NCBI GenBank assembly: GCA_963789955.1
Contig: CAWBMV010000034.1
Location: forward strand, 608,001-672,000
Direction of reading: 5' to 3'
Source: an uncultured Candidatus Rokubacteria bacterium
Lineage (GTDB): Bacteria > Methylomirabilota > Methylomirabilia > Rokubacteriales > CSP1-6
Length of the DNA: 64,000 nucleotides
The notes under the pieces: model-generated
Told to the model about the DNA's origin: nothing
Databases searched by the model: none
What the model saw: the letters and a program-made list of their open reading frames with translations, nothing else
Made by a program: the position numbers and the translations under genes
Part shown: positions 28,168 to 44,882 of the stretch, one piece after another
How the letters are laid out: every line of letters starts with the position of its first letter
Numbering within the stretch: the stretch's first letter is position 1

Positions 28168-29245
28168 TCAAGGTAGGGTGACCCTCACCTCGTTCGAGCG
28201 CGCGCTCTCGTTCGGTCGCGCAGCCTTGTCCTGCGCGGTGACGACGTAGCGAGAGGTTCCGCGGGGCACCGTGCGATCCGCATAGGTCGTCCCCGGCACA
28301 TTGATCGACCCGATCCGTTCGAAACCGCCCCCGACTGGAGCACGGTAGATGATGTAGCCGGCGACGTCAGGCTCGGGGCTCGGGCTCCAGGACAGGCGGA
28401 CGATCCCCTCCGACGCGATGGCGACGAGATTGCCCGGCGCGCGAGGGTGGCGTCACGTCCCGCGGCGTCGCCGCGAGCCGCGAAGTCGAACGGCCGTAGA
28501 TCGTCGTGCCCGAGACGACCCGTAGCGCTCGGACGGCATAGTAGTAGGCGCGCTCGTTCTCCAGCTTGGAGTCGGTCAAGGTGGTGTTCGGCACCGGCGC
28601 GGCCACCGGCGCCAGCTCCGCTTCGGCCGAGGGCGCGCGGAGCACCTCGTACGTGAGCGCGTCGGTGATCGCGCTCCCGTCGAGCAGCCGGGTCGGCGCG
28701 CTCCACGTGAGGCGCACCTCGCCCTCGCGCGGCTCGACGACGAGGTTGCCGGGCTCCGCGGGCGCGGGGGCATAGCTCACCGAGACTCGACGAGATGGTC
28801 GGCCGATGCGCCCCTGCGAGTCTCCGGCCAGAATCACGTACGTGTAGCGCCGTCCGTACGAGAGGTTCTTCCGATCCGTGAACTCGAGATGCTGGCCGCG
28901 CCGGACCGCAGGCTCGGGCTCGGCGCCCCGGATTGCGGCGATCTCGTCGTAGCCGGCGATCTGTCCGTCGGTGAGCATCGCCGACTTGGGCTGGCCGGTG
29001 CCGCCGTCCTCCGCCCGAAAGATTCGCATCAGGGTGAAGTCACGCATGCGCGTGTTGTCGTCGCGACGGCTGGGCGGCGTCCACGAGAGGACGATCGACT
29101 CTTCGTGGATGGCGCCGGCCAGGTCGGCGATCGCCTGCGGCGCCCGATGCTCCGGCGCGACCGGAGGTCCTTTCTTGCCGCACGCGGTCAGCGCCACCGC
29201 GGCGAGCCCGAGGCACGCGGCGAGGCGCCGCCCGCGCCCGATCAT
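28168..29245 (-). CDS. Lipoprotein with LptM/LppL-like N-terminus and fibronectin type III repeats (frameshift near 28440)
   Basis: LTAC lipobox followed by GKKGPPVAPE; three LSW/LTW..Y.I.R..Y.Y.V FN3-like modules. Confidence 0.75.
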
Positions 29246-30673
29246 GCGCGCGCGATGAGCGTGCGGGCGAGGGCGAGCGAGCGGCGCACGGCGTCGGGCG
29301 CCGTGCCGCCGGTGGCCGAGCGGGCGCGGAGCGAGGCGTCGACCGTGATGGCGTCCTTGGCGTCCTCGTCGAAGAGCGGAGAGAAGCGGCGCAGCTCGAC
29401 GAGGCCCAGGGCGTCGAGCGGCTTGCCCTCGGTCTCGCAGAGCCGCACGATCCCGCCCGATCACGCCGTGCGCCTGGCGGAAGGGCAGGCCCTTGCGCAC
29501 GAGGTAATCGGCCAGATCCGTCGCGGTCGCGAAGTTCTCGCCGGCGGCCCGCCGCATGCGCTCGGTCCGGAACGTCAGCGACGCCAGCATCGGCGGCACG
29601 ACGGCCAGGATCGCCTCGAGCGTGTCGACCGAGTCGAAGAAGGGTTCCTTGTCTTCCTGCATGTCCGAGTTGTACGCGAGCGGCAGCCCCTTCATCGTCG
29701 TGAGCACCGCCACCAGATTGCCGTAGAGCCGACCGCTCTTGCCCCGCACCAGCTCGGCGACGTCGGGGTTCTTCTTCTGCGGCATGATCGACGACCCGGT
29801 CGCGAAGGCGTCCGAGAACTCCACGAAGCCGAACTCCGCGGTGGCCCACAGCGTCAGATCGGCGGCGAGGCGCGACAGGTGCATGCCGGTGATCGCGGCC
29901 GCCGACAGGAACTCGAGCAAGGTGTCGCGGTCACTCACGGAGTCGAGGCTGTTCGGCGAGACCGCGGCGAAGCCGAGATCCTTCGCGAGCGCCTCGAGAT
30001 CGATCGGAAACGCCGTGCCGGCGAGCGCGGCGGCGCCCAGGGGCATCGACGCGGCCCGCGCGCCGCAGTCGGTGAACCGGTCGCGATCGCGCTGCACCAT
30101 GAACACGTAGGCCAGAAAGTGGTGGCCCAGCACGATCGGCTGCGCGCGCTGCAGGTGCGTGTAGCCCGGCAGCGGCGTTTCGAGCGTCTCGGCGGCGCGC
30201 GCGACCAGCGCCTCCTGCACGCGCCGCAGTCCCGCGCGAATGCGCGCGATGATCTCGCGAAGGTACAGGCGTTCGTCGACCGCGATCTGATCGTTGCGTG
30301 AGCGCCCGGTGTGCAGCTTGCCGCCGACCTCGCCGATCAATTCTTGAAGCCGCCGCTCGATGTTCGTGTGGATGTCCTCGAGCTCGGTGCGGTACGGGAA
30401 GGTCCCCGCCGCCAGCTCGTCGCGGACGGCGGCCAGGCCCCGGACGATCGCGTCGCGCTCGGCGGCCGACAGCAGTCCGGCCCGCGCGAGCGCCTTGGCC
30501 CACGCGACGCTGCCGGCGATATCGTGCGGCCAGAGCCGGCGGTCGAAGGCGATCGATCCGGTGAACCGCTCGGCGGCGGGGTCGGCGCCCGCGGTGAACC
30601 GGCCGCCCCAGAGCTTTTCCGACTTCTCCGCGCCGCTCCGCGGAGCCGCGCGCTTGCGGGGCCGCGACTTCAC
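29242..30673 (-). CDS. argH: Argininosuccinate lyase (frameshift near 29455)
   Basis: LWGGRF, LHTGRSRNDQ, GYTHLQ, TGSSIMPQKKNPD. Confidence 0.96.
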
Positions 30674-31363: not shown

Positions 31364-32362
31364 TCACCGAGCGCGGGCGAGCCGGTACCGGGCGACCGCC
31401 GCGTTGTGCTCGGCGATCGTCGCCGAGAAATGATGATGGGTGTCGTCCATCGCGACGAAGTAGAGGTAGTTCACCGGCGCCGGATCGAGCGCCGCCTCGA
31501 TCGCCGCGATCCCAGGGCTCGCGATCGGCCCGGGAGGCAGTCCCGGGTTGCGGTACGTATTGTACGGATGGTCGAGCCGGAGATCGGCCCGAGTGAGCGC
31601 GCGCCGTTCCTTGCCGGTGGCGTATTGCACGGTGGGATCGGCCTGAAGCGGCATCTTGAGCTTGAGCCGGTTCCAGAACACCGCGGAGATCGTCCGCATC
31701 TCGCCGCGCTCCACCGCCTCGCGCTCGATGATCGAGGCGAGCGTGAGCAGCTGGTGCACGGTCAGCCCGCGCGCGGCGGCGCGCGCCGTGATGTCGGCGC
31801 CCATCTTCGCGCGAAGGCGCTGCACCATGCGGGTCAGCATCTCCTCGGGGGTCATGCCGCGCACGAACTGATACGTATCGGGGAACAGGTAGCCCTCGAG
31901 GCTCGGCGCCTCGACCCCGAGCATCGAGAGAAAGGCCGGATCGGCGGCCAGACGGCGGATCGTGGCGCTCGGCGCCAGACGCTCGGTCTCGAGGGCGCGG
32001 GCGAGCTCGGAGACGGTCGCGCCCTCGGGCTGCAGGACGAGGTGCTGCTTGACCCGCCCGGACTCCAGCTGGCTCAGGACGTCCAAGGTGGATGCGCCCC
32101 GGTCGAGCTCGTACTCACCCGCCTTCAAACGCCGGGTGGTGCCCCGGAGCCCGGCCAGGACGACGAAGCCCGCGCGGCTTCGGATCCCACCGGCCTGCTG
32201 CAGACGGTTAGCGATCTCCAGGACGCCGTCGTGGGCTGGAATCTCCACGAGCACCGGACCGGCCTGGAGCGCATCGGTGGGCGTCGCGACTTCGTAGCCC
32301 AGAAGGGCGACGACGGCGACCCCAACGAGCATGAGGAGGGCGATGGCGGCACGCAACCCCAT
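31364..32362 (-). CDS. mltG: Endolytic transglycosylase MltG
   Basis: EGYLFPDTY, LASIIERE, LQADPTVQY, PYNTY, GLPPGPI. Confidence 0.95.
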   Translation of the reverse strand: MGLRAAIALLMLVGVAVVALLGYEVATPTDALQAGPVLVEIPAHDGVLEIANRLQQAGGIRSRAGFVVLAGLRGTTRRLKAGEYELDRGASTLDVLSQLESGRVKQHLVLQPEGATVSELARALETERLAPSATIRRLAADPAFLSMLGVEAPSLEGYLFPDTYQFVRGMTPEEMLTRMVQRLRAKMGADITARAAARGLTVHQLLTLASIIEREAVERGEMRTISAVFWNRLKLKMPLQADPTVQYATGKERRALTRADLRLDHPYNTYRNPGLPPGPIASPGIAAIEAALDPAPVNYLYFVAMDDTHHHFSATIAEHNAAVARYRLARAR

Positions 32363-32454
32363 GATTTCCCAGTGTAACATCGGGGCTCTGGTATACTGTG
32401 ATGCCTTGGTGGCCGAATTACCCCGATCACACTGGCTCGCTTCTAGGGGGTCCC

Positions 32455-33447
32455 ATGCTTGAGTTGCAACTGCCCACCCGTCACGATTGGACTGTCCAGG
32501 ACAAGACTTACGGCAAGCTGTCGATCGAGCCTTTCGAGGCCGGCTTCGCCCTGACCGTCGGTATCGCGTATCGCCGGGCGCTTCTTTCGGCGATCCACGG
32601 CGCCGCGCCGACCTGGGTCAAGATCGAAAACGTCCTGCACGAGTTCTCGCATCTGCCGGGTGTGATGGAAGACACGCTCGACATCATGATGAATCTCCGC
32701 AAGGTCGTGTTCACCTTGCACGTGAACCGGCCCAAGATCCTCCGGCTCCGCGCTCAGGGCAGCGCGGTCGCCAAGGCCAGCGACTTCGAGACCGACGCGG
32801 ACATCGAGGTCCTCACGCCCGACGTGGTCCTGGCGACCCTCGACAAGGACGGGGTCTTCGAGATGGAGGTCTGCGTCGAGCGCGGCCGCGGCTACGTGTC
32901 GGCCGAGAAGCGCGAGCCCGAGGCCCTGCCGATCAACGCGATCCTCCTGGACGCCGACTTCTCGCCGGTCAAGCGGGTGAACTTCCACGTCGAGCCCGTG
33001 ACCGAGGGCCGCGAGCGGCTGGTGCTCGAGGTGTGGACCGACGGCAGCGTCAGTCCGGCGACCGCGGTCGGCGAGGCGTCGCGGATTCTCGAGGACCACT
33101 TCGATCTGCTCATGGACTTCCCGGAGGTCTCGCCGCAGGAAGAGGCCGCCGAGCGCGACGAGGCGCGGCCGCGCACCGAGCTGAACGAGAACCTGTTCCG
33201 CAACGTCGACGAGCTGGAGCTGTCGGTCCGCGCGTCGAACTGCCTCAAGACCGCGAACATCCGGACCATCGCCGACCTCGTGCAGAAGACGGAAGCCGAG
33301 CTCCTGAAGACCAAGAACTTCGGCAAGAAGTCGCTGAACGAGATCAAGACGATCCTGGGCGAGATGAGCCTGTCACTCGGCATGCGCCTGGATCCGGAGG
33401 AGCTGGAGCGCCTGCGCTCCCAGTACGAACGCGCCTACGAAGCCTAG
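32455..33447 (+). CDS. rpoA: DNA-directed RNA polymerase subunit alpha (orphan, divergent copy)
   Basis: [60 protein letters not shown] -10 at 32392 and AGGGGG SD. Confidence 0.93.
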
Positions 33448-33451
33448 GGCG

Positions 33452-33580
33452 GGCAGGTCGCTGAAAATGGCCCGGCTGCTTCGTTGGCGCCCTCGGCTAC
33501 ACGCTCAACGTACAGCGAGTACGCCTCGCGTGTAGCCTTCGGGCGCCGCCTCGCATCCGAACCTTTTTGAGCGACCTGCC
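33452..33580. repeat. About 130 bp nested palindromic REP/MITE-like element
   Basis: GGCAGGTCGCTGAAAA...TTTTGAGCGACCTGCC outer arms; GGCGCCC..GGCTACACGC / GCGTGTAGCC..GGGCGCC inner arms. Confidence 0.75.
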
Positions 33581-33657
33581 GGCGTTGCCGGTCCGACTCG
33601 AAGAAGATCTAGCCCGACCGGAAAGCAACTGCACTCGCTCGGTGCGGGCTTCGCTTG

Positions 33658-34893
33658 CTAGCGGGAGAGGCGGGTTTTGATGCGGTCGACGGCTTCTTCG
33701 GTTGAGGCGCGGGCGCCGAAGGCGGTGAGGCGGAAGTAGCCCTCGCCGCTCGGGCCGAAGCCGGCGCCGGGGGTGCCGACGACGTGGGCCTCGTTCAGGA
33801 GCTTGTCGAAGAAGTCCCAGGACGATAGACCGCCCGGGGTCTTGACCCAGATGTACGGGGCGTTGCGCGCACCGTAGACCGTGAGTCCCGCCGACTCGAG
33901 TCCTTCCCGAATGATCCGCGCGTTCTCCATGTAGTAGTCGACGAGCGCGGTGACCTGCTTCTTGCCCTCGGCCGTGTAGGTCGCGGCGGCGGCGCGCTGG
34001 ATGACGTAGGCCACCCCGTTGAACTTGGTGGACTGGCGGCGGACCCAGAGCGAGTTGATGCTCACCGTCTCGCCCGAGGCCGAGCGGCCCTGCAGCTCCT
34101 TCGGTACGACGGTGTAGGCGCAGCGCGTGCCCGTGAAGCCCGCGGTCTTCGAGAAGGAGCGGAACTCGATCGCGACCTCGCGCGCGCCCTCGATCTCGTA
34201 GATCGAGTGCGGGATCGCCGGGTCGCGGATGTAGGCCTCGTACGCCGCGTCGTAGAGGATGACGGCGCTCCGCTCGCGCGCGAAGTCGACCCAGGTCTTC
34301 AGCGCCGCGCGCGTCAGCACCGCGCCGGTCGGATTGTTCGGGTAGCAGAGGTAGATCAGATCGACCGGCCGGTCCGGGATGCGCGGCTGGAAATTGTTCT
34401 CGGCCGTGCACGGCAGGTACACGATCCGATCGTAGCGACCGCTCGCGTCCGCGTTCCCGGCGCGTCCGCCCATCACGGTGACGTCGAGGTACGCGGGGTA
34501 TACCGGGTCGCTGAGCGCCACGACACAGTCCGGCCCGAAGATCTCCTGGATGTTGCCCGTGTCGCTCTTGGCGCCGTCGCTCACGACGATCTCGTCGGCG
34601 GTGAGCTTGATGCCGCGCTCGCCGTAGTCGTGACGGATGATCTCGTTGACGAGGAAGTCCCAGCCGGTCTCGGGCGGATAGCCGCGGAACGTTTCCGGCC
34701 GCGCCATCTCGTCGACGGCCTCGTGCATCGCGCGGATCACCGCGTCGGGCAGCGGCCGCGTCACGTCACCGATCCCCAGGCGGATGAGCTTCGCGTCGGG
34801 GTGCGCCGCCTGATATTCACGCGTGCGCCGGCCGGTCTCGCTGAAGAGATAGCTGGCGCGCAGCTTCAAGTAGTGGTCGTTTATCCGGGTCAT
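33658..34893 (-). CDS. dapL: LL-diaminopimelate aminotransferase
   Basis: [57 protein letters not shown]. Confidence 0.95.
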
Positions 34894-41243: not shown

Positions 41244-42298
41244 AGGCCGAGCTGCGCCAGGACGGCGTCGACTCGCGGCGGCACCGTGGTCGGGCGCGAC
41301 GCGGACTCGAGCGCGGTGTCCGGGTCCTTGAGCCCGTGGCCGGTGAGCGTCAAGACGAGAGTCGAGCCGGGCTCGAAGCGCCCGGCCTTGACGAGCTTGA
41401 TCAAGCCGGCCACCGTCGCCGCCGACGCCGGCTCCATGAAGATGCCCTCTTCGTGGGCCAGCAGGCGATAGGCGCGCAGAATCTCTTCGTCGGTGACGAT
41501 GTCGATCCAGCCGCGTGAATCTTTCATCGCCTCCAGCGCCGGGCCCCACGAGGCCGGGTTGCCGATCTTGATCGCGGTCGCGACCGTCCGCGGCTCCTCG
41601 ATCACCCGGTTCTCGTAGATCGGCGCGGCGCCGGCCGCCTGGAAGCCGACCATTCGCGGGAGCTCCTTCACGCGGCCGGCCCGGTGATACTCGCGGTAGC
41701 CGCGCCAGTACGCGGTGATGTTGCCCGCGTTGCCGACGGGAATCAGGTGATAGTCCGGCGCGCGTCCGAGCTGATCGCAGACCTCGAACGCCCCGGTCTT
41801 TTGCCCCTCGAGCCGGAACGGATTCACCGAGTTCACGAGCGTGACGGGATACCGCTCGGCGATCTGCCGGACGATCGTCAGCGCCTGGTCGAAGTTGCCG
41901 TCGACCATGAGGACCTTGGCGCCGTGGATGGCGGCCTGCGAGAGCTTGCCGAGCGCGACCGAGCCCTTCGGCACCATGACGAACGCGCGGATGCCGGCGC
42001 GCGCGGCGAACGCGGCGGCCGAGGCCGACGTGTTGCCGGTCGAGGCGCAGATGACGGCGCGCGAGCCCGCCTCGAGCGCCTTCGACATCGCCACGGTCAT
42101 CCCGCGGTCTTTGAACGAGCCCGTCGGATTGAATCCCTCGCACTTCAGATAGATCTGCATGCGCGCGTCGGTCGCCTCGGCGAGCCGCGGCGCCGGAACG
42201 AGCGGCGTGTTGCCCTCGTGGAGCGTCACGATCGGGGTCTTGTCCGAGACCGGGAGGAAGTCCCGGTATTCCTCGATCACGCCGCGCCAGGCCTTCAC
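41240..42298 (-). CDS. thrC: Threonine synthase
   Basis: EGNTP, NPTGSFKDRG, CASTGNTSAS, PVGNAGN, TGHGLKDP. Confidence 0.96.
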   Translation of the reverse strand: MKAWRGVIEEYRDFLPVSDKTPIVTLHEGNTPLVPAPRLAEATDARMQIYLKCEGFNPTGSFKDRGMTVAMSKALEAGSRAVICASTGNTSASAAAFAARAGIRAFVMVPKGSVALGKLSQAAIHGAKVLMVDGNFDQALTIVRQIAERYPVTLVNSVNPFRLEGQKTGAFEVCDQLGRAPDYHLIPVGNAGNITAYWRGYREYHRAGRVKELPRMVGFQAAGAAPIYENRVIEEPRTVATAIKIGNPASWGPALEAMKDSRGWIDIVTDEEILRAYRLLAHEEGIFMEPASAATVAGLIKLVKAGRFEPGSTLVLTLTGHGLKDPDTALESASRPTTVPPRVDAVLAQLGL

Positions 42299-43633
42299 GC
42301 CGGACTGCCCTCGACCCGGATCATGGTCGTGGCCGCGGCCACGTCACGCAGCCGGTCGATCTTCGCCAGCGCCGCCCGCATGTCGCGCTCGCGCGCCTCG
42401 TGGGTCAGCATGACCACCGGCACCGCCTCGCGGACCCCACGGCCCTTCTGGATGACGTTGGCGATCGAGATGTCGTTCTCACCCAGGATGCCCGCGACCT
42501 TCGACAGGACGCCCGGCCGATCCTGAGCGGTCACGCGCAGGTAGTAGCGGCAGCGGATCGCCTCCATCGGCGTGAGCGGCAGCGGCGTGGGTCCGACCGA
42601 CGGCAGCTCGATCGCGAGCGACGGGATGCCGTGGGCGATCCGTCGCGCGATTTCGATGACGTCCGACAGCACCGCCGAGGCCGTCGGCATCTGACCGGCG
42701 CCTCGGCCGTAGAACATCAGATCGCCGACCGCGTCGCCGGTCAGGAAGATGCCGTTGAACACGCCGGACACCGCGGCCAGCGGCGAGGCGGCCGGAATCA
42801 TCGTCGGATGGACGCGGACTTCGACGCCGCCGGCGCCACCCGGCGCGTCGGGCGCCGTCGCCTTCGCGATCGCCAGGAGCTTGATCCGATAGCCAAGCTC
42901 TCGCGCATAGTCGATGTCCTGGGCCGTGACCCGCGAGATCCCTTCGGTATGGATATGCTTGAGATCGACGAAGGTCCGAAAGGCCAGCGCCACGAGGATC
43001 TGCAGCTTGTGGGCCGAGTCCATGCCCTCGATGTCGAGCGTCGGGTCGGCCTCGGCGTAGCCGTGAGCCTGCGCTTCCTTGAGGACCAGCGAGAAGTCCA
43101 GACCCTCGTCGGTCATCTTGCTCAGGATGTAGTTGCAGGTGCCGTTGACGATACCGGCCAGCGACAGCACCTGGTTGGCCACCAGACCGTCCTTGACGGC
43201 GCGGATCAGCGGGATGCCGCCGGCCACCGCCGCCTCGAAGCCGAGCGCGACGCCGGCGCGCCGCGCCTCTTCGTACGAGCTCGACGCCGTGGTGCGCGAG
43301 GAGCGCCTTGTTGGCGGTGACCACGTGCTTGCCGGCGGCGAGCGCCCGCGAGATGAACGAGCGCGCGGGCTCGAGGCCTCCCACGAGCTCGATCACGACG
43401 TTGATCGACGGGTCGGCGAGCACGCGGGCGGCGTCACCCGTCAGCGGCAGGGACTTGAGGTCGAGGCCTTCACGCGGGCGGGTGAGGTCGGTATCGGCGA
43501 CGGCGGCCAGGATGAGGCGCGCGCCCGCCCGCTCTTCGAGCATCTGGCGTCGGCTCTGGAGGATCTTCGCGACCCCGGCGCCGACGGTGCCGAGCCCCAG
43601 CAGACCGATGCGTACTTCGCGCGCAGCGCTCAC
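42295..43633 (-). CDS. hom: Homoserine dehydrogenase with ACT domain (frameshift near 43275)
   Basis: GLGTVG, VVTANKA, AGGIP, NGTCNYIL, GYAEADP. Confidence 0.95.
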
Positions 43634-43654
43634 GATTGATCTCCGCCGGTCAGG

Positions 43655-44825
43655 TCAGCGGCTCAGCTGCTTGAGTCCGCGCAGCGCCTGGCGAATCCGC
43701 TGCTCGTTCTCGACGAGCGCGAACCGCACGTAGCCCTCGCCGTACTCGCCGAAGCCGATGCCCGGTGAGACGGCCACCTTGGCCTCCTGGATCAAGAGCT
43801 TGGAGAACTCGAGCGAGCCCAGGCTACGGAAGGCGTCGGGAATCGGCGCCCAGACGAACATCGTGCCCTTCGGCTTGGGCACGTTCCACCCGATCTTGTT
43901 GAGCCCGTCGACCAGGACGTCGCGGCGCTTTCGGTGCAGGTCGACGATCTCGGCGACGCACTTCTGGTCGGCCTCGAGCGCGACGATGCCGGCGATCTGG
44001 ATCGGCTGGAAGGCGCCGTAGTCCAGATAGGACTTGATGCGGGCCAGCGCGGCGATCATCCGGGAATTGCCGCAGCACGAAGCCGAGCCGCCAGCCGGCC
44101 ATGTTGTACGACTTCGAGGTCGAGAAGATCTCGACGCCGACGTCGCGCGCGCCCGGCACCTCGAGGAACGACGGCGGCTGATAGCCGTCGAACGTGAAGT
44201 CGGCGTACGCGAAATCGTGGACGACCATCAGCCGATGCTCGCGCGCGAAATCCACGACCTTCACGAAGAAGTCGCGGTCCACGCACATCGTCGTCGGGTT
44301 GTGCGGGAAAGACAGAATCAGCAGCTTGGCCTTCGGCCACGCCAGCCGCGCCGTTTCCTGCAGCCGCGCGAAGAAATCCCCGTCGGGCGTGAGCGGCACC
44401 GAGCGCAGATCGCCGTCGGCGATGACGACCGAGTACGAGTGGATCGGATAGGTCGGGTTCGGCACGAGCGCGCCGTCACCGGGCTGGAGCACGGCCAGCG
44501 CCAGATGCGCCATGCCTTCCTTGGCGCCGATGGTGGCGATGACTTCCGAGTCCGGGTTCAGATCGACCTTGTAGCGGTCGCGATACCACTTCGCCATCGC
44601 GACCCGCAGCCGCGTGATACCGCGTGACGCCGAATAGCGGTGGTTCTTCGGATTCTTCGCCGCCTCGACGAGCTTGTCGACGATGTGCTTGGGCGTCGGC
44701 ATGTCGGGGTTGCCCATGCCGAGGTCGATCACGTCTTCGCCGCGAGCTCGCGCCTTGGTCTTGAGGTCGTTGACGATGGCGAATACGTACGGCGGCAGTC
44801 GTTTGATTCGGTAAAACTCGTCCAT
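43655..44825 (-). CDS. Class I/II PLP aminotransferase (AlaC-like; frameshift near 44072)
   Basis: [44 protein letters not shown]. Confidence 0.9.
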
Positions 44826-44853
44826 GGAGGACTCCTCTTCGACCAGCCCACCG

Positions 44854-44882
44854 ATGATACGCGTGGCCGCCAGGAGTGTCAA
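44854..44882 (-). promoter_or_regulatory. sigma70 promoter of aminotransferase-hom-thrC operon
   Basis: TTGACA-N17-TATCAT upstream of GAGGAG SD. Confidence 0.75.

Follow-up and report, generated by a model that had tools for sequence, protein, structure and literature searches.

Bacterial RNA polymerase assembles on a dimer of alpha subunits, and a homodimer is its textbook state. The 64,000-nucleotide stretch of DNA analyzed here (the window) comes from a soil bacterium of the order Rokubacteriales, known from MAGs, and it carries an rpoA gene that stands apart from the ribosomal protein operon. This raises the question of whether the product of this gene shares the polymerase with a second, different alpha. 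The original prediction held that it is a second rpoA specialized for the beta-facing alpha-I position or, failing that, a regulated swap-in subunit. The first of these proposals is supported by a partner gene, by reciprocal loss of motifs, and by selection. From sequence comparison, phylogeny, and what is known of E. coli alpha, we consider it likely that the organism uses an oriented alpha heterodimer with the orphan as its beta-facing alpha-I.

The orphan rpoA gene occupies positions 32455 to 33447 on the forward strand and encodes a full-length protein of 330 amino acids, as had been predicted, in which the Pfam domains RNA_pol_L, RNA_pol_A_bac, and RNA_pol_A_CTD are all present and in order. 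A single-chain model (pLDDT 76) has a secondary structure consistent with the RpoA assignment. The gene does stand alone. A divergent mltG gene of the YceG family, recognized by domain match (31364 to 32362, reverse strand), lies upstream, and a class I/II aminotransferase gene, which we take to be dapL-like (33658 to 34893, reverse strand), converges on it from the other side. Inspection of the locus neighbors found none of rpsM, rpsK, rpsD, or rplQ adjacent to the orphan. The mltG gene, which marks the insertion site, lies upstream of the orphan in all 80 loci that have 1,200 nt or more of flank, and the aminotransferase gene is a neighbor in only part of the order.

Both upstream signals named in the original prediction are present: TATACT at 32392 to 32397 and the Shine-Dalgarno sequence AGGGGGT at 32445 to 32451, the latter similar in relatives. 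A TG precedes the TATACT, giving a putative extended -10 element, TGGTATACT (32389 to 32397, forward strand), that is conserved in orthologs. Among the 83 orphan copies with sufficient flanking sequence, 81 have the pattern TATA[AC]T upstream and 63 have the extended form TGnTATA[AC]T; TATA[AC]T occurs in none of 83 in-gene control windows. A consensus sigma-70 promoter and terminator scan returned no sites at the orphan gene because a -35 match is absent. The conserved extended -10 element suggests a housekeeping-type promoter. Contigs from all four of the RNA-labeled runs examined (23 are listed) cover parts of the orphan gene, some of them near-identical, but they also cover the flanks; contigs show neither transcription nor its level. 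The gene is followed by a 131-nt imperfect palindrome (33452 to 33582; predicted -82 kcal/mol as RNA), which is REP/MITE-like and a possible terminator and, counting itself, has seven long matches in the genome.

Three rpoA loci were found in the genome: the orphan, a copy in an rpsM-rpsK-rpsD-rpoA-rplQ operon, and an extra orphan-type copy on contig C16. Thus, the orphan is not the sole rpoA in its genome. A single 1.27-Mb contig carries both the orphan and the operon copy, and operon copies are flanked by rpsD and rplQ in 20 of 20 loci examined. The orphan protein is 42% identical to the intact operon copy of another genome, G013. The operon copy of the window's own genome has a one-base insertion relative to this G013 ortholog (93% DNA identity, one gap). 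Because rpoB and rpoC, each present at one locus, are likewise broken into two frames, the frameshifts in all three genes are probably assembly errors. Many housekeeping genes in this assembly appear frameshifted, as seen for argH-, hom-, and aminotransferase-like ORFs, labeled by eye (window positions 28367 to 30673 and 42295 to 44882), and for rpoB, rpoC, and the operon rpoA on G000:C34, which is consistent with indel errors.

The third copy (L002, G000:C16:6684-7673) is 79% identical to the orphan, and extra orphan-type copies also occur in G010, G011, and G014 (L151, L023, L152, and L153). These copies form their own clade (support 99/95), have the conserved -10 in none of five cases, and are under relaxed selection (dN/dS 0.31 to 0.54). 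The copy in the window's genome sits between an insertion-sequence-like element with three genomic copies and an integrase-like ORF adjoining tRNA-Met (ORF labels by eye), which puts an RNA polymerase subunit gene on what looks like a mobile island. Another genome has a degenerate third orphan-type copy in two pieces (L198, G165:C57) alongside intact orphan and operon copies.

The pair of one orphan and one operon copy spans Rokubacteriales. We counted by hand the PF01000 matches in 170 genomes of at least 85% completeness (124 Rokubacteriales and 46 other Methylomirabilia); these matches are not strict copy numbers, and they take in five unpublished genomes (G066, G073, G091, G166, and G167) on which no conclusion hangs. 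Of the 124 Rokubacteriales genomes, 105 had at least two matches, 17 had a single match, and 2 had none. Among the 46 other Methylomirabilia, 43 had a single match, one had none, and two, G065 and G074, had two matches, in G074 through a separate duplication. The 17 single-match Rokubacteriales genomes comprise 9 with only the orphan and 8 with only the operon copy, mostly assigned by score. No rplQ was found in any of the 11 orphan-only and zero-match genomes, and therefore the alpha operon is unassembled in them. Five of the eight operon-only genomes yielded no mltG, and in the other three the contig stops no more than 340 nt upstream of mltG. These single-match genomes look like assembly gaps, which leaves G025 as the one candidate for a true exception to a lineage-wide pair of non-identical rpoA genes of the type seen in Francisella. 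Two further loci were set aside. A second copy in G065, considered as a duplication outside the order, matches a G165 contig at 99.9% identity and was probably mis-binned, and an operon-side alpha in G033 (L150, on a 2.6-kb contig), with conventional motifs and unlike either paralog, was excluded as probable contamination.

To compare the two proteins residue by residue, we used E. coli alpha from NC_000913.3 as the reference for numbering and aligned 87 distinct full-length orphan copies, 20 operon copies, 13 single-copy outgroups, and 3 Nitrospira sequences. Partial and frameshifted orphan copies and one frameshifted outgroup were dropped. The equivalent of R45, which had been described as kept, is R41 of the orphan (32575 to 32577, forward strand), and it is retained in 87 of 87 orphan and 20 of 20 operon copies. 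Residues H62-E63-F64-S65 (32638 to 32649, forward strand) correspond to H66-E67-F68-S69 of E. coli (HEFS), which is found in all 87 orphan copies, in none of the 20 operon copies, and in all 13 outgroups. The reverse is true of the hairpin equivalent to E. coli residues 187 to 201 (32989 to 33021, forward strand). Between E188 and D199, the orphan has a loop of 6 residues vs 10 in E. coli, and R191, T196, and D197 are missing from it, in agreement with the claim of a loop about four residues shorter that lacks its Arg and Asp. The R191-to-K200 loop is absent from all 87 orphan copies and present in all 20 operon copies and 13 outgroups; its length is constant at 10 residues in operon copies and ranges from 5 to 13 in orphan copies. 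With this hairpin missing in 87 of 87 sequences, the orphan does not carry both the beta and beta' surfaces on one polypeptide.

An additional 26 operon copies (15 + 11) fit the same pattern, so that 46 of 46 specialized operon copies have the hairpin and lack HEFS. Two other operon-side alphas retain HEFS, namely those of G025 and of the probable contaminant in G033, and one orphan copy outside the set of 87 reads HGFS (G026). Among residues presumed to lie at interfaces, L83 and K86 are changed in the orphan and kept in the operon copy, and D77 and N184 are changed in the operon copy and kept in the orphan. Single-chain models place the hairpin strands at 172-181/186-195 in the orphan vs 172-183/189-199 in the operon copy.

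According to the text of PMC3294249, beta protects residues 30 to 55 and 65 to 75 of E. coli alpha, and beta' protects residues 175 to 185 and 195 to 210. Residues 186 to 201 of alpha-II are described in PMC13202282 as rearranging to take beta'. Because HEFS lies within the beta footprint and the hairpin is a beta' element, the orphan has lost a beta' element and the operon copy a beta element. The original prediction had proposed that the orphan alone had diverged, but divergence of the operon copy is no smaller (it shares 40% identity with a single-copy relative, and the orphan 50%), and the complementary surface is missing from it; as judged from the alignment, divergence is reciprocal rather than asymmetric. 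Two other points of that prediction also require revision. Of the changes it listed in the EPLERGFG motif, L43Y/F is indeed specific to the orphan, but L31F, G36A, and L39V are shared with the operon copy and are therefore lineage traits, and N41I occurs in just 43% of orphan copies. Likewise, a requirement of R191 for beta' assembly was overstated, since an R191C enzyme is reported in PMC8092217 to assemble normally but to be unstable.

The partition of surfaces is not clean. Complementary loss is seen for segments 65 to 75 and 186 to 201, but not for 30 to 55 and 175 to 185. Segment 175 to 185, within the beta' footprint, is better kept in the orphan (0.87) than in the operon copy (0.77), and segment 30 to 55 is kept equally (0.80 and 0.79). 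The orphan substitutions K86R and K200R are conservative. Furthermore, R191 is present in 98 and H66 in 102 of 112 distant representatives, a set biased by its loop-less query, so neither motif is universal. The loop-less sequences in this set include P0033, P0075, P0091, P0114, P0120, and P0129, and those without HEFS include P0130, P0143, and P0149; of ten unusual representatives looked up by cluster, one has a named taxon, Myxococcota. Such one-surface alphas are possible further examples of specialized subunits.

These patterns suggest how the polymerase might be organized. A duplication of rpoA on the Rokubacteriales stem would have given rise to two alphas that lost complementary surfaces. 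The orphan would have retained the patch that contacts beta, along with a canonical C-terminal domain (CTD), and dropped the hairpin that binds beta'; in the operon copy, the hairpin would have been retained, the beta patch lost, and the CTD eroded or lost. The predicted core enzyme consists of the orphan as alpha-I, seated on beta via R45 and the HEFS patch, the operon copy as alpha-II, seated on beta' via the hairpin, and beta, beta', and omega. Both genes are proposed to be kept because neither copy could fill both places. Formation of the heterodimer, its orientation, and the essentiality of both genes are inferred from sequence comparisons. Prediction of a complex of the two N-terminal domains with a beta fragment was uninformative in this regard, as a control in which chain 2 was replaced scored equally high.

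Several observations count against an oriented heterodimer, among them the incomplete partition and the non-universal motifs described above. R45 is also present in both copies, and therefore the orientation determinant of Francisella and E. coli is absent. In addition, PMC13202282 reports that a B. subtilis R42A mutant binds both large subunits, and therefore residue roles differ by lineage. The shared R45 also speaks for a heterodimer that is preferred but not obligate, such that a homodimer of either copy would also give an active core. Such a mixed population could likewise accommodate the retention of segment 175 to 185 and V180 in the orphan, the extra orphan-type copies in some genomes, and the low activity that the text of PMC3294249 reports for Francisella alpha1 alone. 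We nevertheless regard it as unlikely, given that no examined genome demonstrably lost either copy and that the hairpin is invariant in operon copies and outgroups but variable in length in the orphan.

The CTDs bear on the second proposal of the original prediction, in which the operon copy would be the housekeeping alpha and the orphan a conditionally expressed subunit that alters promoter or activator response by changing the alpha-CTD. The orphan CTD (33181 to 33360, forward strand), identified by Pfam and alignment, is canonical, and its DNA-binding residues are intact as claimed (R265, N268, C269, N294, G296, K298, and S299). It is the operon copy whose CTD is eroded or missing. In families f1 and f5, equivalents of R265, G296, K298, and S299 are kept amid many other changes, and the domain is absent from 12 of 12 f4 copies and the one f3 copy examined, whose proteins end at 237 to 255 amino acids; the insert domain is retained. 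In f3 and f4, the orphan would therefore supply the only CTD of the enzyme. An operon copy without HEFS in 46 of 46 cases, and without a CTD in all 13 of the f3 and f4 copies examined, would make a poor stand-alone alpha. The orphan, by comparison, is better conserved and has a housekeeping-type -10 element. Although the orphan has a promoter separate from the ribosomal operon, and G074 shows that a complete alpha can be accompanied by an accessory one without the loop, a swap-in role is very unlikely.

The oriented heterodimer also fits the selection acting on the pair. Median dN/dS is 0.15 for the orphan and 0.18 for the operon copy (Nei-Gojobori, 36 pairs from 9 genomes), values for which dS is probably depressed by high GC3. 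Both genes are under purifying selection, and the orphan, conserved across the order, is neither strain specific nor neutrally evolving. Orphan and operon copies each group into one clade; the families branch in matching order in both, and the stems are of similar length (0.48 and 0.54). Together with G025, they form a clade with 100/100 support against Methylomirabilales and Nitrospira in a tree rooted on Nitrospira. As in Francisella, these data point to a duplication specific to the lineage, after which both paralogs evolved faster and were maintained by selection, although support for the two copies together is just 79/59 in one reduced tree. AU tests reject grouping the orphan with Nitrospira (p 0.022) and the operon copy with the outgroup to the exclusion of the orphan (p 0.025), modest values obtained with long branches, and an origin of the orphan from outside was rejected accordingly (p about 0.02). 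In a FastTree analysis that included the 112 distant representatives, each copy held as a clade, but the joint clade also contained a representative that looks unrelated, and deep placement had no support. Horizontal acquisition, mis-binning, decay of a duplicate, or a non-polymerase role for the orphan is highly improbable and already largely refuted, as the shared contig, the mltG synteny, the low dN/dS, and the AU tests outweigh a bin contamination of 5%, the mobile-looking surroundings of the third copy, and a fast broad tree that, with weak support, did not put the pair beside Methylomirabilales.

Two genomes may represent other stages of such a history. G025, which is 73% complete and the sole genome of its family examined, has one detected alpha. 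This protein is encoded in the operon, carries both motifs and a canonical CTD, and mixes orphan-like and operon-like features (L220 and L236). No rpoA adjoins its mltG, which is preceded by ruvX and purA. The G025 alpha groups with the operon copies (96/94 after removal of trait columns), and its placement as a pre-duplication outgroup to the pair was rejected (p 0.017 to 0.029, modest and sensitive to long branches). It would serve as a natural control, a single alpha with both surfaces, although an orphan copy may lie unassembled elsewhere in this genome or the placement may be a long-branch artifact. G074, from outside the order, has a second rpoA (L146, G074:C3:119000-130000) located after rpsK, about 4 kb from the operon copy. 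This extra alpha keeps HEF, has lost the R191 loop, and resides next to a complete operon alpha. Its orthology to the orphan was rejected (p 0.034, again modest and sensitive to long branches), and its loop loss is apparently independent of Rokubacteriales. In the G074 pair, loss of the loop from one alpha has not been matched by damage to the other, which counts against the heterodimer.

The simplest order of events would be duplication, loss of the hairpin from the orphan, loss of HEFS from the operon copy after G025 branched off, and loss of the operon CTD in f3 and f4. More tentatively, and with somewhat less confidence than an even balance would warrant, these steps could be viewed as a ratchet that converts a homodimer into a two-gene assembly platform resembling that of archaea and eukaryotes. 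Loss of the beta patch from the operon copy would then have locked the heterodimer in place, and the f3 and f4 polymerase would be a natural enzyme with a single alpha-CTD. The complete operon alpha of G025, sister to the operon copies, and the independent loop-less extra copy of G074 would be living early stages, and the distant alphas lacking the loop or HEFS may hint that the process has occurred repeatedly in uncultured bacteria.

The standard alpha homodimer of E. coli, Methylomirabilales, and Nitrospira has the same three domains, the same CTD residues, and the same operon position as the operon copy described here, but its one gene encodes both surfaces (13 of 13 sequences from the Methylomirabilales side and 3 of 3 from Nitrospira), unlike in Rokubacteriales. 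We found no published report of paired alphas in Rokubacteria in the open-licence literature, the scope of our search. Other rpoA duplicates are on record. PMC3294249 mentions those of Chloroflexus and Streptomyces avermitilis and lists the duplicates in 2011 genomes in its Additional file 1, and PMC10334805 describes RpoA1 and RpoA2 of the Plasmodium apicoplast; the text consulted offers no heterodimer evidence for these cases.

The closest parallel is the oriented alpha1/alpha2 heterodimer of Francisella (Mukhamedyarov et al. 2011, PMC3294249), for which alpha 1 and alpha 2 chains are listed in PDB 6WMP. As described in that paper, it likewise involves a lineage-wide rpoA duplication, accelerated paralogs, and subfunctionalization into beta- and beta'-facing subunits, the last of which is a prediction for Rokubacteriales. 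The Francisella heterodimer was shown biochemically, whereas the Rokubacteriales pair is known from sequence. R45 is lost from Francisella alpha2 but kept in both Rokubacteriales copies, where specialization would instead have proceeded through loss of HEFS and of the hairpin at 186 to 201, and loss of the operon-copy CTD in two families is also unlike Francisella. Gene positions appear to be swapped, since the predicted beta-facing copy is the non-operon gene here and Francisella rpoA1 is the operon copy according to the Fig. 4 legend of PMC3294249. The duplication maps inside Methylomirabilota, and therefore common descent with Francisella alpha1/alpha2 is unlikely; from trees built without Francisella sequences, we infer an independent origin in another phylum.

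Two unlike alpha-type subunits are also found in archaea (Rpo3/Rpo11) and eukaryotes (Rpb3/Rpb11 and AC40/AC19), with the larger of the two facing the beta-like subunit (PMC3294249). Unlike Rpo3/Rpo11 and Rpb3/Rpb11, both Rokubacteriales proteins are recognizable bacterial alphas, the operon copy having kept its insert domain, and the resemblance is one of analogy and not of descent. Francisella provides the only alpha heterodimer shown in the literature we found, and Rokubacteriales would be a second, independent case, extending across a soil-dwelling order and reached by another molecular route. The pair makes rpoA unsuitable as a single-copy marker in this order. It might also offer a naturally oriented alpha-I/alpha-II enzyme, in some families with one CTD, for the study of UP-element and activator contacts. 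Finally, its apparent intermediate stages make testable the transition from a homodimer to an obligate heterodimer, a step that the archaeal and eukaryotic polymerases have taken.
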